Notes under the pieces: model-generated
What the model saw: only the letters and a program-made list of their open reading frames with translations
What the model was told of the DNA's origin: nothing
Databases searched by the model: none
In this document: piece after piece, positions 15,187 through 27,272 of the stretch
Layout: every line of letters begins with the position of its first letter
Numbering within the stretch: the first letter of the stretch is position 1
NCBI GenBank assembly: GCA_040755995.1
Contig: JBFMAF010000021.1
Span: forward strand, 1 to 64,000
Reading direction: 5' to 3'
Source: Acidobacteriota bacterium
GTDB lineage: Bacteria > Acidobacteriota > CAIWXX01
DNA length: 64,000 nt
Translations under genes and position numbers: made by a program

Positions 15187-15789
15187 TCACCTCGCCAGTC
15201 TTTCCGCCATCTGGTCGCACCGCACCCTTCCCAATGTCGGCCTTCTCCGGCCCAAGAACATGCTTCGATCGCCCTCACCAGCGGTGGATTGCACCTGGTG
15301 AAAGAACAGTTGACAAATGGTCATTCCGGGCTTGATAGAGATGGGGATCTCACCGAGGTTTCTCATCTCGAGAGTCAAGCAGCCTCTGAACCCGGGGTGA
15401 ACACCGGTGGCGGTGGCGATCACGAGCCCGCGCCTGCCCCAGCTAGATCTTCCTATCACATATGCAGCCAGGTTCTTGGGGAGACAGACCCATTCCAGCG
15501 TCACGCCCAGGACGAACCCCTGCGGGTGCAGGAAGTACTTGTGGCCGAAGGGCACGTAGTGAGTCTTGGTCAGCTGCATCTGGGGCTCCTGGTCGTCAAC
15601 CTCTAGATGGCTCATCCTGGCATTCCGCAGCGTCACAAACCAGCTCCCAAGCCTCAGATCGATTGATGCCGCCCCGCTGTCACGTAGCTCTCTCACATTC
15701 GGGAGTGGGACTATGATCAACGGATCCTCGCAGTTGGCTTCCCCGGCCTTCAGCAGCTCCTCAGCAACCCGGCCTGCACTCAGAATCAT
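15187..15789 (-). CDS. dcd: Variant dCTP deaminase (trimeric dUTPase fold)
   Basis: MILS start, ASIDLRLG, FVLGVTLE, GRSSWGRRGL, VHPGFRGCLTLE, ICQLFF; ATG overlaps the upstream TGA (ATGA). Confidence 0.85.
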   Translation of the reverse strand: MILSAGRVAEELLKAGEANCEDPLIIVPLPNVRELRDSGAASIDLRLGSWFVTLRNARMSHLEVDDQEPQMQLTKTHYVPFGHKYFLHPQGFVLGVTLEWVCLPKNLAAYVIGRSSWGRRGLVIATATGVHPGFRGCLTLEMRNLGEIPISIKPGMTICQLFFHQVQSTAGEGDRSMFLGRRRPTLGRVRCDQMAERLAR

Positions 15790-17051
15790 ATGGCCCTGCG
15801 CATGCGCCATTCGACTTCGAAGACTTCGATGTTCTTCAGAACAAGCTCCTTGAGAATCTCGTCACGCCTCTCATGAACGACCGGTAGCTCCTTCCAGAAC
15901 CCCGGGTCTTCGGCGACCAGCCATCCGGCGTTGAAGATGTCTGCAAGACCCCTGCAATGCTCGGCTGGGGCAACAAGCTTGAACCGCTCCAGTATGCGAT
16001 TCGTCTCCTCCTCCGAGGACAACTGCACACTGGAAGCCGCGACTAGATCGGCTGCTCTTTCGATGAGCCGCGGTTCAAGGATATCCCGTGCCTCATCAGC
16101 CACGGAAAGCAGGAACTGGCTCGTCTCGCTCAGGTCGCCAACGTCCTCTAGGTCGCAATCGAAAAGGTCGGCATACTCTCTGGGCACGGCCACGTTGAAC
16201 CTCTGTGCGGCGCGCTCCAAGCCCGAGAGACGCGCTTTGCTACTGGGATAGGACTCTGAGCGTCCGGTAAGGCCAGGTGACAGGAGGTAGGCGAATGCGT
16301 AAAGAAAGGAGAAGCCGAAGAGATGTAGGCCGATGAAATCAGCGAAGGACTCCTCCGCTTGCTGCAGGGTCCACTCGGATGCTGCTCGCCACTGGCCGAG
16401 GTGGAAGATGCTTCTTCTCAGGTCCGTGTCGGGTTGGATCTTGTAAGGGAAGACTCGATTGTAGTCCTGTGAGCGCCGTTGCAGTACCTGCACTACTGCG
16501 TCCGTGCACGCATCCTGGAGTTCCGTCTGGAGATTGTACTTCAGCCAGACTGAGTGTCCCAATTCGTGACCAGCCAGGGGTATGAGCAGTGGATTGGCCG
16601 ATTCAGGTGCAGGCAATCCGATCAGCACGTACCCTGGCAACGCGGGAAGCAAACGATATATGAAGGGCGAGTAGTCCCATTCGGACGAGAGAAGTAATCT
16701 GATGTTTGCGTCCTTGGCATCCTTGCCCGGCTCGAGCAAGGTCGCGGCCATCCTGAATAGCGGGTGAACAACTTCAAATGCATTCCTGACATTTGTGGAT
16801 CTGAGGAGGAATCCCGCGATAGGCAGGTAGTCGACCATGTTCTGGAGTGCGACTCTACATGCCTGCCTGACGGTCTCCTTGTCAGCAAGTTCGTCCTGGG
16901 ACTTGATTCTCTCGAGAACCGCCTCCAGAAAGGCCCTCAGGTCCTTGAGTGCGGATTCAGAGTACGGATATGGGAATTCGGACTCGCCCAGCCTTCGGAT
17001 TTCCTCCACCAGAGCAGTCAAACGCCCGATGATGGACTGCTCGAGCTTCAA
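15786..17051 (-). CDS. Uncharacterised HExxH zinc-metallopeptidase-like protein (421 aa)
   Basis: LAGHELGH, later EESFADFIG (ExxAD third ligand) and YPSSKAR; TTG start 3 nt after the upstream stop. Confidence 0.75.
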   Translation of the reverse strand: MKLEQSIIGRLTALVEEIRRLGESEFPYPYSESALKDLRAFLEAVLERIKSQDELADKETVRQACRVALQNMVDYLPIAGFLLRSTNVRNAFEVVHPLFRMAATLLEPGKDAKDANIRLLLSSEWDYSPFIYRLLPALPGYVLIGLPAPESANPLLIPLAGHELGHSVWLKYNLQTELQDACTDAVVQVLQRRSQDYNRVFPYKIQPDTDLRRSIFHLGQWRAASEWTLQQAEESFADFIGLHLFGFSFLYAFAYLLSPGLTGRSESYPSSKARLSGLERAAQRFNVAVPREYADLFDCDLEDVGDLSETSQFLLSVADEARDILEPRLIERAADLVAASSVQLSSEEETNRILERFKLVAPAEHCRGLADIFNAGWLVAEDPGFWKELPVVHERRDEILKELVLKNIEVFEVEWRMRRAI

Positions 17052-17054
17052 CTG

Positions 17055-17519
17055 TCATCTCCGAAATGGGTGTCCCGGCCTCCCCTTCTGGAACGACCTG
17101 TGCGAGATCAGAGCTTCCCTCGATAAGGCCACACAGAACGATCGAATGTCCTTCAGCTGTTCACAACTCGTTTCCCTGTATTTCTCGGGATCTGCAGTGA
17201 CCTGATCGAGTTGTTCGGTGATCCTGCGAGTCTGTTCTGCCAGCTGATCCAAGTCATCCTGTTGTTCGGTCGGTCTGAGGGCGCTATGAATGACCCATGC
17301 CATGGTCGGGTTGAGCAGGGAGGCCTTAGACGATGTCTGGTCAACATGGACGACGGTCTTCGTAATCCGGTCCCTCAATTGCGGCACGGCGGTCAAGGAA
17401 GGTTTGCGCCCCAGGATAAGCGCGTCGATTTCCATGGCTGCACCGCATGCCAAGGAGGCCAGATCCATAACGGCCACCGGTCCACACCTGGACGAAGGCA
17501 CAGTTCTCTGTGGAAACAT
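17055..17519 (-). CDS. Uncharacterised small helical protein (about 154 aa), first gene of the dcd operon
   Basis: Strong GAGGAGGAG RBS before ATG 17519; abuts the next gene. Confidence 0.7.
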   Translation of the reverse strand: MFPQRTVPSSRCGPVAVMDLASLACGAAMEIDALILGRKPSLTAVPQLRDRITKTVVHVDQTSSKASLLNPTMAWVIHSALRPTEQQDDLDQLAEQTRRITEQLDQVTADPEKYRETSCEQLKDIRSFCVALSREALISHRSFQKGRPGHPFRR

Positions 17520-17630
17520 GCTCCTCCTCGCTTCCTGCACCGATTGAGAAATATGCTAGACACGATTGAATCTCGGCTGGATCTCCTCATGTTCGGGAGG
17601 TCCTAGTCGAGCCTGTATCCAACCGCGCCT

Positions 17631-17659
17631 ACAATAAGGGACTGCCGTATTACTGTCAA
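17631..17659 (-). promoter_or_regulatory. Sigma70 promoter of the three-gene dcd operon
   Basis: Minus strand TTGACA-17 nt-TATTGT. Confidence 0.6.
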
Positions 17660-18058: not shown

Positions 18059-18087
18059 TTGACACCAACTGACACCAGGCCTATGTT
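18059..18087 (+). promoter_or_regulatory. Sigma70 promoter of the hsd operon
   Basis: TTGACA-17 nt-TATGTT about 80 nt before hsdM. Confidence 0.55.
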
Positions 18088-18167: not shown

Positions 18168-20179
18168 GTGAACAACTTCAGCGAGAAGGCCAATTTCATC
18201 TGGGGCGTTGCGGACCTCTTGCGAGGACCGTATCGTCCCAATCAGTACAAGGATGTAATGCTGCCGATGACAGTGCTGCGGCGGCTCGACTGCGTTCTGG
18301 AACCGACGAAGGATAAGGTCCACGAGAAGCAGAAGAGCCTCGAGGGCGGCAAGGTCAAGAACGTCGAGCCGATCCTCTGCCGGGTGAGCGGCGTGCCGTT
18401 CTACAATGCGAGTCGCTACACGTTTGAGAAGCTGAAGGGCGATCCGAACCACATCGCCGCCAACCTCACCAACTACATCAAGGGATTCTCCAGCCGCGCC
18501 CGGGAGATCATCGATCACTTCGGCTTCGAGGAGCACATCGCCAAGCTCGACAAGGCCGATCGGCTGTTCTTGCTCGTCTCGAAGTTCTGCGACATTGACC
18601 TGCATCCGGACAGAGTCTCGAACGTCGAGATGGGCTACATCTTCGAGTATCTCACCGGCGATTCAACGAGGCTTCCAACGAGGAGGCAGGTGACCACTTC
18701 ACCCCGCGCGAAGTCATCCGCCTGATGGTGAACCTTCTCTTTCTGCCGGACGCGGACATCCTCACCACGAAGGGCATCGTCAAGACGCTCTTCGATCCCG
18801 CCTGCGGCACAGGCGGTATGCTCTCCGTCTCGGAGGACTACGTCCGCGAGCTGAATCCCGACGCGCGGCTGGAGGTCTTCGGCCAGGACTACAACCCGCA
18901 AGCCTACGCAATCTGCGGGTCGGACATGATGATCAAGGGCCAGAACATCGACAACATCTGCTTCGGCGACAGCTTCACCGACGACCACTTCGCTGCGCAG
19001 AAGTTCGACTACATGCTGGCCAATCCGCCCTTCGGGGTGAAATGGGAAGCGCAGGAGAACTTCATCCGAAAGGAGCACGAAGAACAGGGCTTCGGCGGCC
19101 GCTTCGGCGCGGGCTTGCCCCGCATAAACGACGGGTCCTTCCTCTTCCTCCAGCACATGATCAGCAAGATGAAGGACCCGAAGGAAGGCGGGGCGCGGCT
19201 GGCCATCGTGTTCAACGGCTCCCCTCTTTTCACGGGCTCCGCTGGCTCGGGCGAGAGCGAGATCCGGCGCTGGATCATCGAGAACGACTGGCTGGAGGGG
19301 ATCGTCGCGCTCCCTGATCAGCTTTTCTACAACACCGGCATCTACACCTACCTCTGGATCGTCACGAATCGGAAGGAAAAACAACGTCGGGGAAAGGTAC
19401 AGCTCGTAAATGTTGCGAGCTTCTTCAAGAAGATGCGCAAGAGCCTCGGAAACAAGCGCAACGAGATCTGCGAACCGCAACGAGACGAGATCACACGGCT
19501 ATACGGGGACTACAAGGAGAACGAGTTCGTTCGCATCTTCGACAACAGCGACTTCGGCTATCGGCGCATCACGGTCGAGAGGCCGCTCCGGCTGAGCTTC
19601 TCCGTGTCCGAAGAGCGCCTTGCGCGCCTCCGAGAAGCCACGCCGTTCCGGTCGCTCGCTGAAAGCCGCAAGCGCAAGGACACGAAAGCGGCTGCGATGG
19701 AAGAGGTGGCGGGCAAGAAGACGCAAGACGCGAACCTCGGAGCGCTCCAGAGTCTGGCCTCCATGGGAACGGTGAGGAACCGCGCCACGTTCATCGAGCT
19801 GGTTGCGTCGAAGCTGCGGGAGGCGGGGCTCAAGGTCCCAGCGCCGCTGCTCAAGGCGATCTTGGAGGCCCTGTCCGAGCGTGATGAGTCAGCGGATCTC
19901 TGCACCGACGCGAAAGGGAACCCCGAGCCCGACCCGGAACTCCGGGACAACGAGAACGTGCCCCTCAAGGAAGACGTCGCCGAGTACATGAAGCGTGAAG
20001 TCCTCCCGCACGTGCCGGACGCCTGGGTCGATGACTCGAAAACAAAGGTCGGCTACGAGGTCAACTTCAACCGCTACTTCTACAAGTACACGCCTCCGCG
20101 TCCGCTGTCGGAAATCGAGGTGGACCTGAAGCAAATCGAAAAGGAGATTGCCGAGACCCTCGCCGAGGTAACAGGATGA
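18168..20179 (+). pseudogene. hsdM: Type I R-M methyltransferase HsdM, split by a 1-nt deletion near 18654 (real or sequencing error)
   Basis: N-part FIWGVADLLRG...MGYIFEYL; restoring one base in CTC A[T]C CGG CGA gives LIRRFNEASNEEAGDHFTPREVIRLMV, continuous with DPACGTGGML and NPPF. Confidence 0.88.
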
Positions 20180-21543
20180 AGTGGCGAGCCTATCTGGATT
20201 ACAGGCCTTCTGGCATGGATTGGTTGGCAGAGGTGCCCGCGCATTGGAAGGTCCGCAAGCTAAAGCACATTGCATCAACCACGTTCAGCAGCGTAGATAA
20301 GCATGCTGTGGATGGCGAGGAACCGGTTCGGCTTTGCAACTACACTGACGTCTACTACAACGAGCATATCACGTCCGACCTCGAGTTCATGGAAGCCACG
20401 GCGACTCAGGAGGAAATCGCCAAGTTCCGACTGAGGAGAGGCGACGTGCTCGTCACGAAGGACTCTGAGGAGTGGGACGACATAGCGGTCCCGGCGTACG
20501 TTGCCACAGACGTCGACAACATTCTCTGCGGTTATCACCTCGCACAAGTCCGCCCGAACGATGTGCTCATAGACGGACGATACCTCCTCAGATCATTCCG
20601 CGCGCGCGGCATTAACGACCAGTTCCGAGTTGCCGCGACGGGTATAACTCGCTTCGGTCTCGGCAAATACTGGCTTGACAGCGCACTCTTTCTCGTGCCT
20701 CCTCTGGATGAACAGCGGGCCATCGCGGAGTTCCTGGACCGCGAGACGGCCCGGATCGACGCGCTGATCGCCAAGAAACAGCGTCAGATCGAGCTGCTCG
20801 AAGAGAAGCGTGCAGCCCTGATCACGCGAGCTGTCACGAAGGGGCTTGACCCCAATGCCAAGATGAAGGACTCCGGCGTCGAGTGGCTCGGAGAAATACC
20901 CGCGCGTTGGGGCATCAGGCGCCTCCGCTTCGTATCCACACTTCAGACGGGTCTCACCCTTGGCAAGAAATACGCTGGCCGGGGGCTTGTGACACGGCCG
21001 TACTTGAGAGTGGCGAATGTGCAGGACGGCTATCTGGACCTGGGGAGGATAACCGATATCGAGCTTCGGAGAGAGGAAGCCACGCGCTATGAGCTTCGGT
21101 ACGGCGACGTGCTGATGACCGAGGGCGGCGATTTCGACAAACTCGGGCGTGGGTATGTTTGGGAGAACCAGATCCCAGGGTGTCTCCACCAAAATCACCT
21201 CTTCGCTGTGAGGCCCAACCCCTCGGAGTTGAACCCGCACTTCTTGGCGGCCCTGCTCGCCTCATCCCACGGAAAGAACTATTTCACAAGTACCTCCCAG
21301 CAGACGACGAATCTAGCCACCACCAACAGCACCAAGCTGCGTAATTTCATTCTTCCGCTTCCACCAGTGCGCGAGCAGGACCAGATACTTGGGCAAATGA
21401 GACAGGAGATGGGTCGGCTCGATGAGTTGACAGAGAAGGGCACTTCGAGCATTGAGAAGCTCCGCGAGTATCGCACGGCGCTGATCTCGGCGGCGGTGAC
21501 CGGGAAGATTGACGTGCGCGGGGAGGCGGCGCGATGCACGTAG
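20176..21543 (+). CDS. hsdS: Type I R-M specificity subunit
   Basis: Two TRDs with repeated SGMDWLAEVP/DSGVEWLGEIP, PPLDEQ/PPVREQ, ALISAAVTGKIDV. Confidence 0.95.
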   Translation: MKWRAYLDYRPSGMDWLAEVPAHWKVRKLKHIASTTFSSVDKHAVDGEEPVRLCNYTDVYYNEHITSDLEFMEATATQEEIAKFRLRRGDVLVTKDSEEWDDIAVPAYVATDVDNILCGYHLAQVRPNDVLIDGRYLLRSFRARGINDQFRVAATGITRFGLGKYWLDSALFLVPPLDEQRAIAEFLDRETARIDALIAKKQRQIELLEEKRAALITRAVTKGLDPNAKMKDSGVEWLGEIPARWGIRRLRFVSTLQTGLTLGKKYAGRGLVTRPYLRVANVQDGYLDLGRITDIELRREEATRYELRYGDVLMTEGGDFDKLGRGYVWENQIPGCLHQNHLFAVRPNPSELNPHFLAALLASSHGKNYFTSTSQQTTNLATTNSTKLRNFILPLPPVREQDQILGQMRQEMGRLDELTEKGTSSIEKLREYRTALISAAVTGKIDVRGEAARCT

Positions 21544-22673
21544 AGGTCAAGCCCGAGCTCCTGCGCTGGGCGCGCGAGCGAGCCGGCCGGAGCCAGGCGA
21601 GCCTGCGCAAGAGGTTTCCTCATCTCGAATCGTGGGAACGCGAGGAGGCCAAGCCCACACTCAGACAATTGGAAGCGTTCGCTAGGGCCACGTTCGTGCC
21701 GATCGGATATCTGTTCCTTGCCGAGCCGCCTCAGGAGGTGGTCCCGATTCCGGATCTTCGCATCAGGGGCGGCGAGCCTCTCGGGCCGCTCAGCCCTGAT
21801 TTGTTAGACGTGCTCTACCTCTGCCAGCGCCGGCAGATGTGGTACCGCCATCACGCCATGTCGGTTCGACAGGAGCCCCACCGTTTCGTGGGTTCAGTAC
21901 GACTAGGGGATCCTGTCGACCGCGCGGCCGATGCGATGAAGCGCAACCTGGGCTTCGACCTGGAGGTGCGGCGTGCATGCCCTACATGGACCGATGCGCT
22001 CCGGCTGTTCATCGACCAGGCCGAGGATCTGGGCGTTCTCGTGATGGTGAGCGGCGTCGTGGGAAGCAACAACAAGCGAAAGCTCGATCCGGACGAATTC
22101 CAGGGGTTCGCTCTGGCCGACCACCTGGCACCGCTTGTGTTCCTCAACGGCGCGGACACCAAGGCGGCGCAGATGTTCACCCTCGCCCACGAGCTGGCGC
22201 ACGTCTGGCTGGGCGAGAGCGCGATCTCCGACGTGAATCCCGACTCGGCACCTTCGCAGCCGGTCGAACGCTGGTGCAACGAGGTGGCGGCCGAGCTCCT
22301 GGTCCCGCTTCAAGTACTGCGGGAGGTTCTGCCGAAAAGGGAGCCACTCGCGGAGGTGCAGGATCTCGCGCGCAGGTTCAAGGTAAGCACGCTTGTGATC
22401 TTGCGCCGAATTCTCGATGCCGGACGCATCTCGCGCGGCACTTTCCAGGAGGCATACGATCAGGAGCTCGAACGCCTCCGGAGCCTGTCGAAGTCGAGCG
22501 GTGGTGACTTCTACTTGACGCAGGGGGCGCGCTTGAGCAAGTGCTTCGCGCGGGCGCTGGTGGTGAGCACACTGGAAGGTCAGACTTCGTTCACCGAAGC
22601 GTTCCGGTTACTCGGGGTCAAGAAGATGGCCACCTTTCGCGAGCTCGGCTCCAGCCTGGGCGTGGCGATATGA
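21534..22673 (+). CDS. XRE-HTH plus ImmA/IrrE (M78) metallo-endopeptidase
   Basis: LLRWARERAG...WEREEAKPTLRQLE HTH; FTLAHELAH; ERWCNEVAAELLVP; ARRFKVS. Confidence 0.9.
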   Translation: MHVEVKPELLRWARERAGRSQASLRKRFPHLESWEREEAKPTLRQLEAFARATFVPIGYLFLAEPPQEVVPIPDLRIRGGEPLGPLSPDLLDVLYLCQRRQMWYRHHAMSVRQEPHRFVGSVRLGDPVDRAADAMKRNLGFDLEVRRACPTWTDALRLFIDQAEDLGVLVMVSGVVGSNNKRKLDPDEFQGFALADHLAPLVFLNGADTKAAQMFTLAHELAHVWLGESAISDVNPDSAPSQPVERWCNEVAAELLVPLQVLREVLPKREPLAEVQDLARRFKVSTLVILRRILDAGRISRGTFQEAYDQELERLRSLSKSSGGDFYLTQGARLSKCFARALVVSTLEGQTSFTEAFRLLGVKKMATFRELGSSLGVAI

Positions 22674-25600
22674 TGGCACGCCGACACACCGAACAGGCAT
22701 TCGAGGCTGCCATCGAAGAGTATCTCATCGCGTCCGGCGGATACACCAGGGGCGACCGCGAGGCGTTCGACCGTGACCGCTGCGTTGATCCGCAGACCTT
22801 CTTTGCGTTCGTGCGCGAGACGCAACCCCGGGAGTGGGAGTACCTGAAGAGCCTCCAGAAAGACAAGGCTGAGGCCACGCTGCTCGACGACCTATGCCGG
22901 GCGCTCAACTCGGAGCACGAGGGCTGCCTGTCGGTCCTGCGCCACGGATTCAAGTGCTTCGGCAAGCTCATCCATGTTGCGTACTTCGCGCCGGCTAGCG
23001 GCATGAACCCGGAGACGCAACGGCTCTACGCGGCGAACCGCCTCACGATCACCCGCCAGCTCCGCTACTCGGATCGTCATGCCAAGACGCTCGACGTCAT
23101 GCTGGCGCTCAACGGGATTCCCGTGGCGACGGCCGAGCTCAAGAACCCGATGACGGGGCAGAGATGGCACGACGCCGCACGTCAGTACAGGCACGACCGT
23201 GATCCGGCGGACTTGATCTTCCAGTTCAAGAAGCGCGCCCTCGTTCATTTTGCGGTAGACCCCGACGAAGTCTACATGACGACCCGTCTGGCAGGCGCTA
23301 ACACTCGTTTCCTGCCATTCAATCGAGGGCGATCCGGCGGGGCGGGCAACTCGGACAACCCGGATGGGTGGAAGACGGCCTATCTGTGGGAGGAGGTCCT
23401 GGAGCGGCATGGTTTCCTGGACATCCTGGCGCGATTCATTCACCTGCAGATAGATGAGAAGAACCTCGGCGGAAAGAAGGTGCGGCGCGAGGCGATGATC
23501 TTCCCGCGCTATCACCAGCTCGATTGCGTGCGAAGGCTCATCGCCGAAGCGCGCGAAAGGGGCGCGGGGACCAACTACCTTGTGCAGCATTCCGCCGGCA
23601 GCGGCAAGAGCAACTCCATCGCCTGGCTGGCCCATCGACTGGCAAGCCTCTACGACGCGAAGGACCAGAAGGTATTCGACTCCGTGATCGTCGTTACCGA
23701 CCGAATCGTGCTCGACCAACAACTTCAGAACACCATATACCAGTTCGAGCACAAGCAGGGCGTCGTGGAGAAGATCGACGTGGACGCCACACAACTCGCG
23801 CAGGCGCTCGCAAGCGGCGTCCCCATCGTCATCACGACCCTCCAGAAGTTCCCCTTCGTCACCGAGAAGATCGGCGACTTGCCGAAGCGTCGATACGCGG
23901 TGATCGTCGATGAGGCCCACAGCTCCCAGGGCGGCGAGACCGCGACAGAGATCAAGGGTGTGCTGGGAGGACAGGCCATCAAGGAGGAAGCACGCAGGAA
24001 GGCAGAGGAGGCAGGCCTGCCCGATTACGAGGAGGAGATCCTGCGCACGATGGCGAAGCGCGGGCGGCAGCCCAACATCAGTTTCTTCGCCTTCACGGCC
24101 ACGCCCAAGTACAAGACGATGGAGGTGTTCGGGCAACCAGGACCGGACGGGAAGCCGCGCCCATCCCATCTCTACAGCATGCGGCAGGCCATTGAGGAAG
24201 GCTTCATCCTCGACGTGCTGCAGCACTGCACGACCTACAAGACGTACTACCGGCTCATCAAGTCGATCGAGGATGATCCCAAGGTCGACAAACGGAAGGC
24301 AGCTCTGGCACTGGCGCGGTTCATGAGTCTTCATCCCCACAACATCGCGCAGAAGACCGAGGTGATGCTTGAGCACTTCCGCCTCTTCACCATGCACAAG
24401 ATCGGCGGCAAGGCGAAGGCCATGGTGGTGACGTCAAGCCGCCTGCATGCCGTTCGGTACAAACAGGCCTTCGAGAAGTACATCTCCGAGAAGGGGTACC
24501 GCGGGATCAAGGTGCTCGTGGCGTTCTCCGGGACGGTGATCGATCCCGATGTCCCTGGCCTCGATTACACCGAGGTGGGGATGAACAAGGGCATTCGCGA
24601 GAAGGAACTCCCCGAGCGCTTCGCCACGGACGAATACCAGGTTCTCCTCGTGGCCGAGAAGTACCAGACCGGCTTCGATCAACCGCTCCTTCACACGATG
24701 TACGTCGACAAGCGCCTGGCTGGCGTGCAGGCGGTGCAGACGCTCTCACGATTGAACCGGATCCACCCGGGCAAGGAAGACACCTTCGTCCTCGACTTCG
24801 TCAACGAGAGGGAGGAGATCCTCGCCGCCTTCCAGCCCTACTACGAGCAGACCGGCGTGGGCGAGCAGGCCGACCCGAAGCAGCTCTACGAGCTTCAGGC
24901 CAAGCTCGACGGGCATCAGGTCTACCACAAGGCCGAGGTCGAGGAGTTCTGCAAGGTCTTCTACAAGCCCGCGCGGAACCAGTCGCCGCCCGACCACGCC
25001 CGGATGAACGCCTGCATCGATCCGGCGGTGAGCCGCTACAAGCAGCTTGGCGACGACGTGCGAGAGGAGTTCCGCAAAACGCTCGTGGCATACCGGAACC
25101 TTTACGCCTTCCTGTCGCAGGTCATCCCGTTCCAGGATTCCGATCTCGAGAAGCTCTACTCATACATCCGGTTCCTCCTGACCAAGCTGCCGAAGGGCGA
25201 CAGGGGGCCGGTGTACGACTTCGACGAGGACGTCGCGCTCAAGTACTACCGCCTTCAGAAGATCAGCGAGGGGGCCATCAAGCTGGAGGCGGGCAGGGGC
25301 GGCGAGGTGTCGGCGCCCACCGAGGTCGGAACCGGCGCAGCACACAGTGAAGAGATCGAGCTCTCGAAGCTCATCGACATCCTGAATGAGCGATTCGGCA
25401 CGGACTTCAAGCCAGCCGACCAACTCTTCCTCGATTCCATCCGCGAGGACGCGATCGGCAAGACGGACATACGGCAGGCTGCTCTAGCAAACACGATGGA
25501 GAACTTCGGGTACGTCTTCCTGAAGGCGCTGGAGGGCCTGTTCATCGATCGGATGGAGCAGAACGAGGAGATCACGGCTCGGTTCATGAACGACAGGGAG

Positions 25601-26197
25601 TTCCAGGATGTGGTCGGCAAGCACCTTCTCAAGGAGGTGTACGAGCACATCCGGTCGCAGAAGCCGGCGATTGAGGTCGTCTTGCCTTTCCGTCGTGTCA
25701 CGCCTCGCGAGGAGGACAAGTTTCGCACGTGCGTCCCGCTCCTGACGCTGAAAGCCGCCGCCGGAGCCTTCGGCAACGCGCAGGCCGTGGAGCCCGATGG
25801 ATGGGTGGAGTTCAAGACCTCACGGCGTCTCCGCCCCGGCATGTTCGTGGCGCAGGTCATTGGCCACTCGATGGAACCGCGCGTTCCTGATGGTTCCTGG
25901 TGCCTGTTCCAGACGCCGGTCGAAGGGAGCCGCCAAGGGCGCATCGTACTTGTGCAGCACCGCGACATCAGCGATCCCGAGACAGGCGGCAGTTACACGG
26001 TGAAGCGCTACAGGAGCGAGAAGGAGGCAGACGGCACCGGCGGCTGGCGTCACGCTGAGATTCGCCTCCTACCGGACAACCCCGACTTCAGTCCCATTGT
26101 CCTCAAAGACGTCGCAGACGACGAGGTGCATATTGTGGCAGAACTGGTCGAGGTGCTCCTGCGGAGCGATGAGCTGGCGACTTCCGCCACACCGTGA
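22670..26197 (+). CDS. hsdR: Type I R-M restriction subunit HsdR with a C-terminal LexA/S24-like domain
   Basis: Nuclease D-x13-ELK; QHSAGSGKS; DEAH; FTATPK; QTGFDQP; QTLSRLNR; extra C-terminal AAAGAF...GHSMEP...YTVKRY. Confidence 0.93.
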   Translation: MMARRHTEQAFEAAIEEYLIASGGYTRGDREAFDRDRCVDPQTFFAFVRETQPREWEYLKSLQKDKAEATLLDDLCRALNSEHEGCLSVLRHGFKCFGKLIHVAYFAPASGMNPETQRLYAANRLTITRQLRYSDRHAKTLDVMLALNGIPVATAELKNPMTGQRWHDAARQYRHDRDPADLIFQFKKRALVHFAVDPDEVYMTTRLAGANTRFLPFNRGRSGGAGNSDNPDGWKTAYLWEEVLERHGFLDILARFIHLQIDEKNLGGKKVRREAMIFPRYHQLDCVRRLIAEARERGAGTNYLVQHSAGSGKSNSIAWLAHRLASLYDAKDQKVFDSVIVVTDRIVLDQQLQNTIYQFEHKQGVVEKIDVDATQLAQALASGVPIVITTLQKFPFVTEKIGDLPKRRYAVIVDEAHSSQGGETATEIKGVLGGQAIKEEARRKAEEAGLPDYEEEILRTMAKRGRQPNISFFAFTATPKYKTMEVFGQPGPDGKPRPSHLYSMRQAIEEGFILDVLQHCTTYKTYYRLIKSIEDDPKVDKRKAALALARFMSLHPHNIAQKTEVMLEHFRLFTMHKIGGKAKAMVVTSSRLHAVRYKQAFEKYISEKGYRGIKVLVAFSGTVIDPDVPGLDYTEVGMNKGIREKELPERFATDEYQVLLVAEKYQTGFDQPLLHTMYVDKRLAGVQAVQTLSRLNRIHPGKEDTFVLDFVNEREEILAAFQPYYEQTGVGEQADPKQLYELQAKLDGHQVYHKAEVEEFCKVFYKPARNQSPPDHARMNACIDPAVSRYKQLGDDVREEFRKTLVAYRNLYAFLSQVIPFQDSDLEKLYSYIRFLLTKLPKGDRGPVYDFDEDVALKYYRLQKISEGAIKLEAGRGGEVSAPTEVGTGAAHSEEIELSKLIDILNERFGTDFKPADQLFLDSIREDAIGKTDIRQAALANTMENFGYVFLKALEGLFIDRMEQNEEITARFMNDREFQDVVGKHLLKEVYEHIRSQKPAIEVVLPFRRVTPREEDKFRTCVPLLTLKAAAGAFGNAQAVEPDGWVEFKTSRRLRPGMFVAQVIGHSMEPRVPDGSWCLFQTPVEGSRQGRIVLVQHRDISDPETGGSYTVKRYRSEKEADGTGGWRHAEIRLLPDNPDFSPIVLKDVADDEVHIVAELVEVLLRSDELATSATP

Positions 26198-26279: not shown

Positions 26280-27272
26280 TCACACCCAACCGTCATTCAG
26301 AAAGACCCTTCCAAACCTCTTCTTCACGGCTGCCACACCGGCAGATCTGTCATCCGGAAAGCGCTCATACTCGTCCGCGGCGATCCGAGCCGCGATGTCC
26401 GCGGCCTGGATGCCGAGTAATTGCGCCGAATCATGCTGCTGGAGTGTCCCGCCGTGCAGGGTGGAGACAAAGAAGCTCTCCTTCACCCCCTCCAAGGAGC
26501 GCAGGACGCGGTCGTGAACACGTGTGAGTTCCTTGAACGAAGACTGAAACCCCCGGTCGAAGTGCCTGTCAACCGATATCGTTTGGCCGAGGGTGACAAA
26601 TCCCAGGTACCCTGGCGTGAGTATTCGTTTCGTTCGTTGGGCAGCCGAGATCGCCGCCTCTTGGCGCTCTGGAGCGAGGGCATCCGCAAACGTGTCGGAA
26701 AGCCTGGCCACGAATTGCTCAAACTCCTGTCCGCTCATCGTCCGCAGATCCTCACGGTTGACGAACAGCTGCCGATCAACGGCCCCTGATCCCGCCTCCT
26801 GCAAAAGATCTCGGAGCATCGTCTCGATCTTCGGAACAGCCGTCGACTCGATTGTTCCCTCACGCAACCTGACAACATACGCACGCGCGAACTCGCGTGA
26901 CGTTGCCCGCTCCAAAGCGTGGCTGAGGGCCTCACCTCGCGTTGGTGGCGGATTCCCAGTCATCTCACATATGCGAGTCAGCAGTCGTCGATAGTGTTCG
27001 CTGATATCCACGATGACTATCGTCGCTGATGAGACATTATCAAGCACCTGTTTCCGAACAAGGTTGTTTGTCCCCATCACAGCCAGGACGAGGGGAGCTT
27101 TCAACTCGACCTTGTCCGGGAAATGATCGCGCTTCAACGCGCGTACCCACTCGAAGCCACTTGGATCTTCGGTGCGTGCAGCAATCGACGCCCGACCAAT
27201 GCCCCGAAATGCATCACATCGACTGCCGGTCGATGTCTCATCCGAGTAGGTGCCGTCGAAGGGCTTGTTCAT
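26280..27272 (-). CDS. DUF3800-like putative nuclease (RNase H-like fold)
   Basis: N-terminal YSDETS and C-terminal DS...GIQAADIAA match the DES...QxAD signature. Confidence 0.65.
   Translation of the reverse strand: MNKPFDGTYSDETSTGSRCDAFRGIGRASIAARTEDPSGFEWVRALKRDHFPDKVELKAPLVLAVMGTNNLVRKQVLDNVSSATIVIVDISEHYRRLLTRICEMTGNPPPTRGEALSHALERATSREFARAYVVRLREGTIESTAVPKIETMLRDLLQEAGSGAVDRQLFVNREDLRTMSGQEFEQFVARLSDTFADALAPERQEAAISAAQRTKRILTPGYLGFVTLGQTISVDRHFDRGFQSSFKELTRVHDRVLRSLEGVKESFFVSTLHGGTLQQHDSAQLLGIQAADIAARIAADEYERFPDDRSAGVAAVKKRFGRVFLNDGWV

Follow-up and report, generated by a model that had tools for sequence, protein, structure and literature searches.

We analysed a 64,000-nucleotide (nt) stretch of DNA from an Acidobacteriota bacterium (positions 1 to 64,000 of contig JBFMAF010000021.1, hereafter the window) and found that three minus-strand open reading frames (ORFs) within 15187-17659, denoted S, M and D, are a real, conserved, mobile and co-inherited three-gene module. 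S encodes a small protein, M a predicted metallopeptidase, and D a predicted deaminase of deoxycytidine triphosphate (dCTP). The trio is apparently an undescribed module comprising two unnamed protein families and a modified dCTP deaminase (Dcd): no description of it was found in the literature searched, the candidate tables of large defence screens lying outside that search, and S, M and D match none of the PADLOC-DB 2.0.0 families at an expect value (E) of 0.1, in agreement with a preliminary description of this DNA that had recognised no named system. Its probable function is to attack phage through controlled changes in the nucleotide pool, although a role in defence is unproven. Under the reading that we prefer, to which we assign a probability of roughly 0.4, the S-M pair would be a switch on D that, on phage infection, drains dCTP and piles up deoxyuridine triphosphate (dUTP).

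Among the best 80 of the 131 M relatives found in GTDB genomes, D lies directly downstream of M in 74 loci; five of the six other loci end within 285 bases of the M match, and the sixth (L010) has 507 bases with no match. Upstream of M, S was detected by tblastn in 56 of the 80 loci, another 23 have at this position an ORF with the same motifs as judged by eye, and in the last one the contig ends. When the search was started from D in metagenomes, using the best 80 of at least 413 D relatives, M was found upstream in 78 of 79 loci, and S upstream in all loci with enough flank (46/46). The linkage to a single Dcd clade is thus conserved, a point that the preliminary description had proposed to test. 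The commonest M-D junction is a 4-base overlap (33/67). In the window, a 3-nt gap separates S from M (TGA-CAG-TTG), and the start of D shares the stop of M in an ATGA overlap, so that both of the tight junctions described earlier are present in the sequence. The promoter ascribed to the trio, TTGACA-17-TATTGT, was also recovered; promoter-like sites number 5 in 3.4 kb, the divergent site in front of hsdM being one of them, compared to 1.0 +/- 1.1 in shuffled sequences.

The trio is accessory rather than only vertically inherited, as judged from its low guanine-cytosine (GC) content, its rare and patchy distribution, and its presence on plasmids and a phage-like contig. The GC content of 15187-17659 is 0.569, compared to a genome mean of 0.627, which is among the lowest 0.7% of 2.5-kb windows. 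The GC content at third codon positions (GC3) is 0.66-0.73 in the trio genes, compared to 0.80 in pbpC and 0.84 in the alpha-2-macroglobulin gene before pbpC, confirming the lower GC relative to pbpC that had been noted by eye. By record titles, carriers belong to Planctomycetota, Acidobacteriota, Verrucomicrobiota, Nitrospirota, Pseudomonadota and other groups. The trio occurs in none of 30 relatives of the source genome, two of which are in the same family, in 1 of 400 genomes drawn at random from the class to which the Rhizobium carrier belongs, and in 4 of 300 genomes of the phylum of the Pirellulales carrier. It is carried by ten conjugative Rhizobium plasmids and by two viral contigs, on one of which it lies beside genes judged by eye to be phage head and packaging-like. 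At the trio site in the window there is no Rfam match, no convincing flanking repeat and no transfer RNA gene; an exact empty site was not found, and two genomes of the same family have other genes after pbpC.

D is a member of the Dcd family, with matches to PF22769 (E = 1.3e-32, 113.4 bits vs. a cut-off of 27) and TIGR02274 (118.1 bits vs. a cut-off of 92.8), and the closest structures in the PDB are Dcd and Dcd:Dut enzymes. Residues S115, R119, E141 and Q160 of D align with S102, R106, E129 and Q148 of the Mycobacterium tuberculosis enzyme, and this Ser/Arg/Glu/Gln set is present in 74 of 75 aligned rows, the remaining row being truncated; we assume for the Arg and Glu positions of D their usual roles in deamination. 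Asp119 of M. tuberculosis Dcd:Dut is needed for dUTP hydrolysis. At the corresponding position, 69 of the 75 rows have His and 5 have Gln, and among the 70 of 80 metagenomic copies that could be matched by residue pattern, 69 have His and one has Gln. Two positions before this site D has Gly, where Dcd:Dut has an aromatic residue, so that the Dcd:Dut hydrolysis set (Asp119 with Ser102 and Gln148, and the aromatic residue two before Asp) is incomplete in D; the Arg126-Asp128 salt bridge of the E. coli-type Dcd is likewise replaced, by Gly and His. Given the change of Asp119 to His or Gln, D would be expected either to release dUTP as its end product or to have a modified sugar pocket, and the uracil poisoning proposed in the preliminary description fits the loss of this Asp. 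The tail of D also departs from the usual KYQ type, with S.F.G.R.P in its place followed by a conserved extra segment (R182, P184, D192 and L198). In a quick tree of 52 rows, the 24 close-family picks form one branch (Shimodaira-Hasegawa-like approximate likelihood-ratio support 99), and the Dcds of these and of the distant trios described below are monophyletic at a support of only 80. Elsewhere in the Dcd family, a stand-alone branch with Gln or His at the Asp site (L002:1453-2010, which is G000:C41, together with L096 and L105) includes two members with TIR or PDC-S01 neighbours, and a Dcd-like protein with a hydrophobic, membrane-like C-terminal tail is encoded near a methylase-like gene (L103:5797-6468, genome G017).

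The M family comprises 758 matches among the 8,000 candidates scored, and 1,317 representatives at 50% identity. In gluzincins of the M48-like kind, HExxH is combined with a downstream Glu as the third metal ligand. M carries this signature: H162, E163, H166, D238, P269, R274, P362 and K406 are invariant in all 144 aligned sequences, with E234 kept in 143 and Y268 in 142, so that the HELGH...EESFAD...YP site noticed earlier is both present and conserved. By motif, M reads as an M48-like gluzincin, that is, a predicted peptidase. Structural models of M, which are confident (predicted local distance difference test (pLDDT) 93-94), place an N-terminal three-helix bundle before the HExxH helix, a long helix bearing E234 and D238, and a helical C-terminal part. 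Their best peptidase match is ZMPSTE24 (Z 5.0-5.9; at Z 5.0, root-mean-square deviation 3.8 over 127 residues). When compared by language-model features, Peptidase_U49 and M48 are the named Atlas clusters that come nearest to M, with a weak score of 0.79. With the M of the window as query, no Pfam family was matched at E 0.1, M48, U49 and M78 included; M likewise has no NCBIfam family over cut-off, no PADLOC or PHROGs match, no match in GenBank phages, and nothing at E 0.001 in fold searches of the PDB or BFVD. The VIA structure matches were set aside as generic helical bundles, and a sequence search of the PDB gave only chance-level matches. An apparent M-D fusion (a 620-aa ORF at L017) was rejected as a frameshift product because the conserved C-terminus of M lies in another frame; longer forms, of 806-2300 aa, were not found, which is weak evidence.

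For S, the most likely start is the ATG at 17519 behind GAGGAGG, which gives 154 aa, and comparison with relatives places the start of the conserved core at 17468; for D, relatives align from the ATG at 15789. The ORFs of the preliminary description were accordingly retained and these two starts corrected. S has no Pfam or NCBIfam family over cut-off, no PADLOC or PHROGs match, no helix-turn-helix family at E 0.1 in a Pfam profile search, and no usable match in the Atlas. When M, D (as one chain, with its contacts unscored) and the S core were modelled together, the S-M complex scored 0.74, compared to 0.01 for the best of three controls, with runs agreeing in at least 60% of contacts and a partner pLDDT of 75-80. 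Among solved complexes, 116 of 157 reach the mark for this score, as do 2 of 215 mismatched pairs; these counts apply only approximately to the present job. All confident contacts of S are with M, at residues 48-71, 136 and 179-226, that is, mainly in the N-terminal helices (48-71) and in the helix that runs up to E234 (179-226), and they include the invariant Ala11 of S (core numbering); the score of S drops to 0.00 when M is replaced with D still in the job. These models support, but do not show, that S binds M as a complex, and the co-folding of the three proteins that had been suggested earlier thus yielded a predicted S-M contact, with D unscored. Covariation among S, M and D in 120-127 paired rows gave top pairs barely above shuffled pairings; for S-M, 2 of the top 50 pairs fall in the predicted interface vs. 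0.8 expected.

Distant versions of the trio also exist. A locus taken as a control dcd locus (L106:4138-6609, G004:C41) proved to be itself a trio, a very divergent one, and the genome has one of the close type as well; the M of L106 has hardly any close relatives. When plasmids were searched with D as query, further distant trios were recovered: on E. coli and Salmonella plasmids of ~90 kb (in E. coli, 8 of 5,426 genomes, all on plasmids), on two Bradyrhizobium plasmids, in Agrobacterium, Rhizobium and Shinella behind multiubiquitin/ThiF/DUF6527 genes and once then SIR2, and on an Emticicia plasmid (L209:4489-6583), where a type I restriction-modification (R-M) operon has the trio inserted between its hsdS and hsdR genes, in the opposite orientation. 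The M proteins of six distant trios are homologous to the window family (hhalign probability 86%, E = 4.9e-6, 212 columns), and the homology across subfamilies spans from HExxH to the last helix. In the Dcds of these six, the Asp site is occupied by Gln or His, and the S proteins of these trios are not detectably related to the S of the window. Three plasmid candidates, from Halobaculum, from Azospirillum and from a Salmonella plasmid whose M is in pieces, are not intact trios, and L115 is an ordinary dcd.

The source genome has two dcd genes besides D, the presence of a separate housekeeping dcd being a check that the preliminary description had called for, and one uracil-DNA glycosylase; no separate trimeric dUTPase or dimeric dUTPase of the PF08761 type was found in this genome, the completeness of which is 99.8%. 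Across carriers, a second dcd over the TIGR02274 cut-off was found in 20 of 46 genomes.

Taken together, these observations can be arranged into a tentative sequence of events. S would hold M quiet; a phage cue would free M; M would then turn D on, by cutting or binding its extra C-terminal segment; D would convert dCTP to dUTP without hydrolysing dUTP; and replication would be starved of dCTP while DNA is loaded with uracil. More broadly, the trios might represent a widespread three-gene immune superfamily, in which a dUTPase fold devoid of dUTP hydrolysis is controlled by a swappable small sensor that releases a gluzincin, switching on dUTP production, with dCTP starvation and uracil poisoning, or dUTP as an alarm, as the outcome; we consider this generalisation only slightly worse than an even bet. 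For the protease-gated nucleotide depletion or uracil poisoning put forward in the preliminary description, the linkage, the loss of Asp and the patchiness all hold up, whereas enrichment of the close family near defence genes is so far not supported.

This last point and several others weigh against the switch. In the close family, a defence neighbour lies within two genes in 15 of 70 GTDB loci (five near-duplicates were dropped; of the 194 genes lying up to two positions away from the cassette, 190 were scanned, 146 with Pfam and 126 with PADLOC, many Pfam-named housekeeping genes being left out of the latter; neighbours were called by judgement, and two generic matches were not counted). 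These neighbours include type I, II, III and IV restriction, Kiwa, AbiE, GmrSD, ThiF-JAB, capP-like genes, MzaA, Fic with S8, trypsin and ATPase genes, a DpdF-like gene, and PDC-S70 with TIR. The frequency is not significantly different from that of control dcd loci of the same genomes (4/19 within three genes; Fisher's p = 1.0) or of control dcd genes of the usual KYQ type (1/12; p = 0.44). Among metagenome loci (111 of 116 flanking genes scanned, five duplicates dropped), 7 of 49 have a defence or toxin-antitoxin-type Pfam neighbour, and 3 of 49 a transposase or integrase. Many copies stand alone among housekeeping genes (transketolase, ftsZ, rplQ-sufB, gyrB). Moreover, Gln or His takes the place of Asp in three stand-alone Dcds too (L002, from this genome, L096 and L105), and because of this we rejected the His/Gln change as a marker of defence; 10 of the 46 carrier genomes, mostly incomplete assemblies, gave no TIGR02274 match besides the D of the trio; the data here give no evidence of contact of M or S with D; and the order from sensor to effector is one that we infer. 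Distant trios occur more often in a defence context, although their number is small and they are related to one another. Placement in defence islands is clear for these distant relatives; in the close family it amounts to ~20% and is not above control, and the evidence for defence from the close family is modest.

The same components could also be wired in reverse, with D as the sensor or signal maker, binding phage-raised or modified deoxynucleotides or making dUTP as a messenger, M as a Lit-like killing protease, and S as its antitoxin. The prediction of S on M, lost once M is replaced and D retained, is compatible with this arrangement, as is the absence of detectable homology between the S proteins of the subfamilies, antitoxins being commonly unrelated between subfamilies. 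Lit, a protease activated by phage, cleaves EF-Tu in response to a T4 peptide (PMC12926258). The nearest named look-alikes of M, at the weak 0.79 given above, are Peptidase_U49, the Lit family, and M48, but no Pfam match to either was obtained at E 0.1; and the altered sugar and water pocket of D could change its ligand, although Ser, Arg and Glu are invariant, residues that serve binding as well. On balance, we find the reverse wiring doubtful, whereas an anti-phage function under either wiring appears likely.

A selfish or stress-triggered cassette resembling a toxin-antitoxin pair, with S as the antidote, M and/or D as the poison, and no special phage role, would account for the trio having its own promoter and translational coupling, for the lone insertions among housekeeping genes, for the absence of any recurring neighbour gene among the flanks of close loci, and for defence neighbours being no commoner than in the control; it is unlikely, given the distant trios inside a type I R-M operon and ubiquitin-like/SIR2 islands, and given that two enzymes and a third part would exceed the needs of addiction. 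We consider it very unlikely that D is an accessory nucleotide supplier feeding the route from deoxyuridine monophosphate (dUMP) to deoxythymidine triphosphate, with M and S as assembly or turnover factors. D does exceed the housekeeping TIGR02274 cut-off, it is the only such match in the 10 carriers mentioned, and stand-alone Dcds share its His/Gln; however, the source genome contains two further dcd genes, and a separate dUTPase, either trimeric or of the PF08761 type, was not found there, so that additional dUTP would burden the cell; the flanks show no recurring gene of the thymidylate pathway; and the presence of the trio is sporadic.

If the trio is anti-phage, the switch on D would be comparable in output to the defensive dCTP deaminase of Tal et al., which we take to be the protein named AvcD. 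Depletion of dCTP is an established defence output, and that deaminase is one 576-aa protein with kinase and zinc-dependent deaminase domains (10.1101/2021.04.26.441389). The likely common output is the conversion of dCTP to dUTP/dUMP during infection, whereas D has 200 aa, an unrelated dUTPase fold and no kinase, lies outside that class (a zinc deaminase with an N-terminal kinase, >350 aa), and is encoded together with a protease-like protein and a small protein. Compared to the housekeeping Dcd of E. coli (1xs1) and the Dcd:Dut of M. tuberculosis (2qxx/2qlp, 4xjc), D shares the fold family and the Ser/Arg/Glu/Gln set but differs in His/Gln for Asp119/128, Gly for Arg126 or the aromatic residue, the tail, and its separate clade. 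With HtpX, ZMPSTE24/Ste24 and Lit (U49), M shares HExxH, a downstream E..D helix and a Y/H-P..R motif; it has no profile match to M48-like gluzincins or Lit, resembles them weakly by features and structure, and adds the N-terminal three-helix bundle, the conserved C-terminal part and fixed partners. In the CapP-CapH and IrrE-DdrO switches, an HExxH peptidase is reportedly paired, in a defence setting, with a small protein that is said to be a helix-turn-helix repressor. M and S are likewise an HExxH protein with a small protein, but M has no Peptidase_M78 or capP match, S has no helix-turn-helix match, and the third gene of the trio is an enzyme in the same operon. An anti-phage trio would thus represent a second, unrelated route to dCTP depletion, with a housekeeping fold controlled by proteolysis rather than by a fused kinase; M would represent a new, so far unnamed metallopeptidase family that comprises >1,300 clusters at 50% identity and lacks a clear counterpart among solved folds; and the extra gene annotated dcd in many genomes would be explained. 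Because versions of the trio occur in cultured bacteria (Rhizobium, Agrobacterium, Emticicia and E. coli plasmids), its function can be tested easily.

Table 1. Features of the S-M-D locus, in window coordinates
Feature	Position	Strand	Basis
Putative sigma-70-like promoter, TTGACA-17-TATTGT	17631..17659	-	Consensus scan, 10/12 matches
Gene S, small helical protein, 154 aa, predicted M-binding partner	17055..17519	-	No family over cut-off; complex model
Gene M, 421-aa gluzincin-like protein, TTG start	15786..17051	-	N-terminal three-helix bundle, HExxH domain, conserved C-terminal helical part
HELGH motif of M (H162, E163, H166)	16554..16568	-	144/144 aligned relatives
E234 of M, likely third metal ligand, then D238	16350..16352	-	143/144; ligand role from gluzincin pattern
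Gene D, 200-aa dCTP deaminase of the trimeric dUTPase fold	15187..15789	-	PF22769, TIGR02274 and PDB Dcd matches
His131 of D, at the Asp119 position of M. tuberculosis Dcd:Dut	15397..15399	-	Alignment

Among the close-family loci, housekeeping insertions with no integrase beside them include L026, between the halves of transketolase, as well as L022/L035, L038/L134 and L054 (landing places also include the position after ftsZ and that between rplQ and sufB). At three unrelated loci, a MerR-type regulator lies directly upstream on the same strand (L016:9167-9436, L061:8873-9409 and L198:1720-2094). In the window, the back-to-back placement of the trio with a type I R-M locus was confirmed, and a divergent promoter-like site at 18059-18087, in front of hsdM, faces the R-M genes, though a frameshift near 18650, either biological or an assembly error, breaks hsdM itself (18168-20179) into two ORFs. 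Between hsdS and hsdR, a gene at 21534-22673 encodes a helix-turn-helix and a Peptidase_M78 (IrrE-like) domain. An ORF of 330 aa with low GC3 and only a weak hint of DUF3800 lies at the end of the island (26280-27272), and a Peptidase_S24-like domain occupies residues 1087-1203 in the C-terminal part of HsdR (22541-26197).

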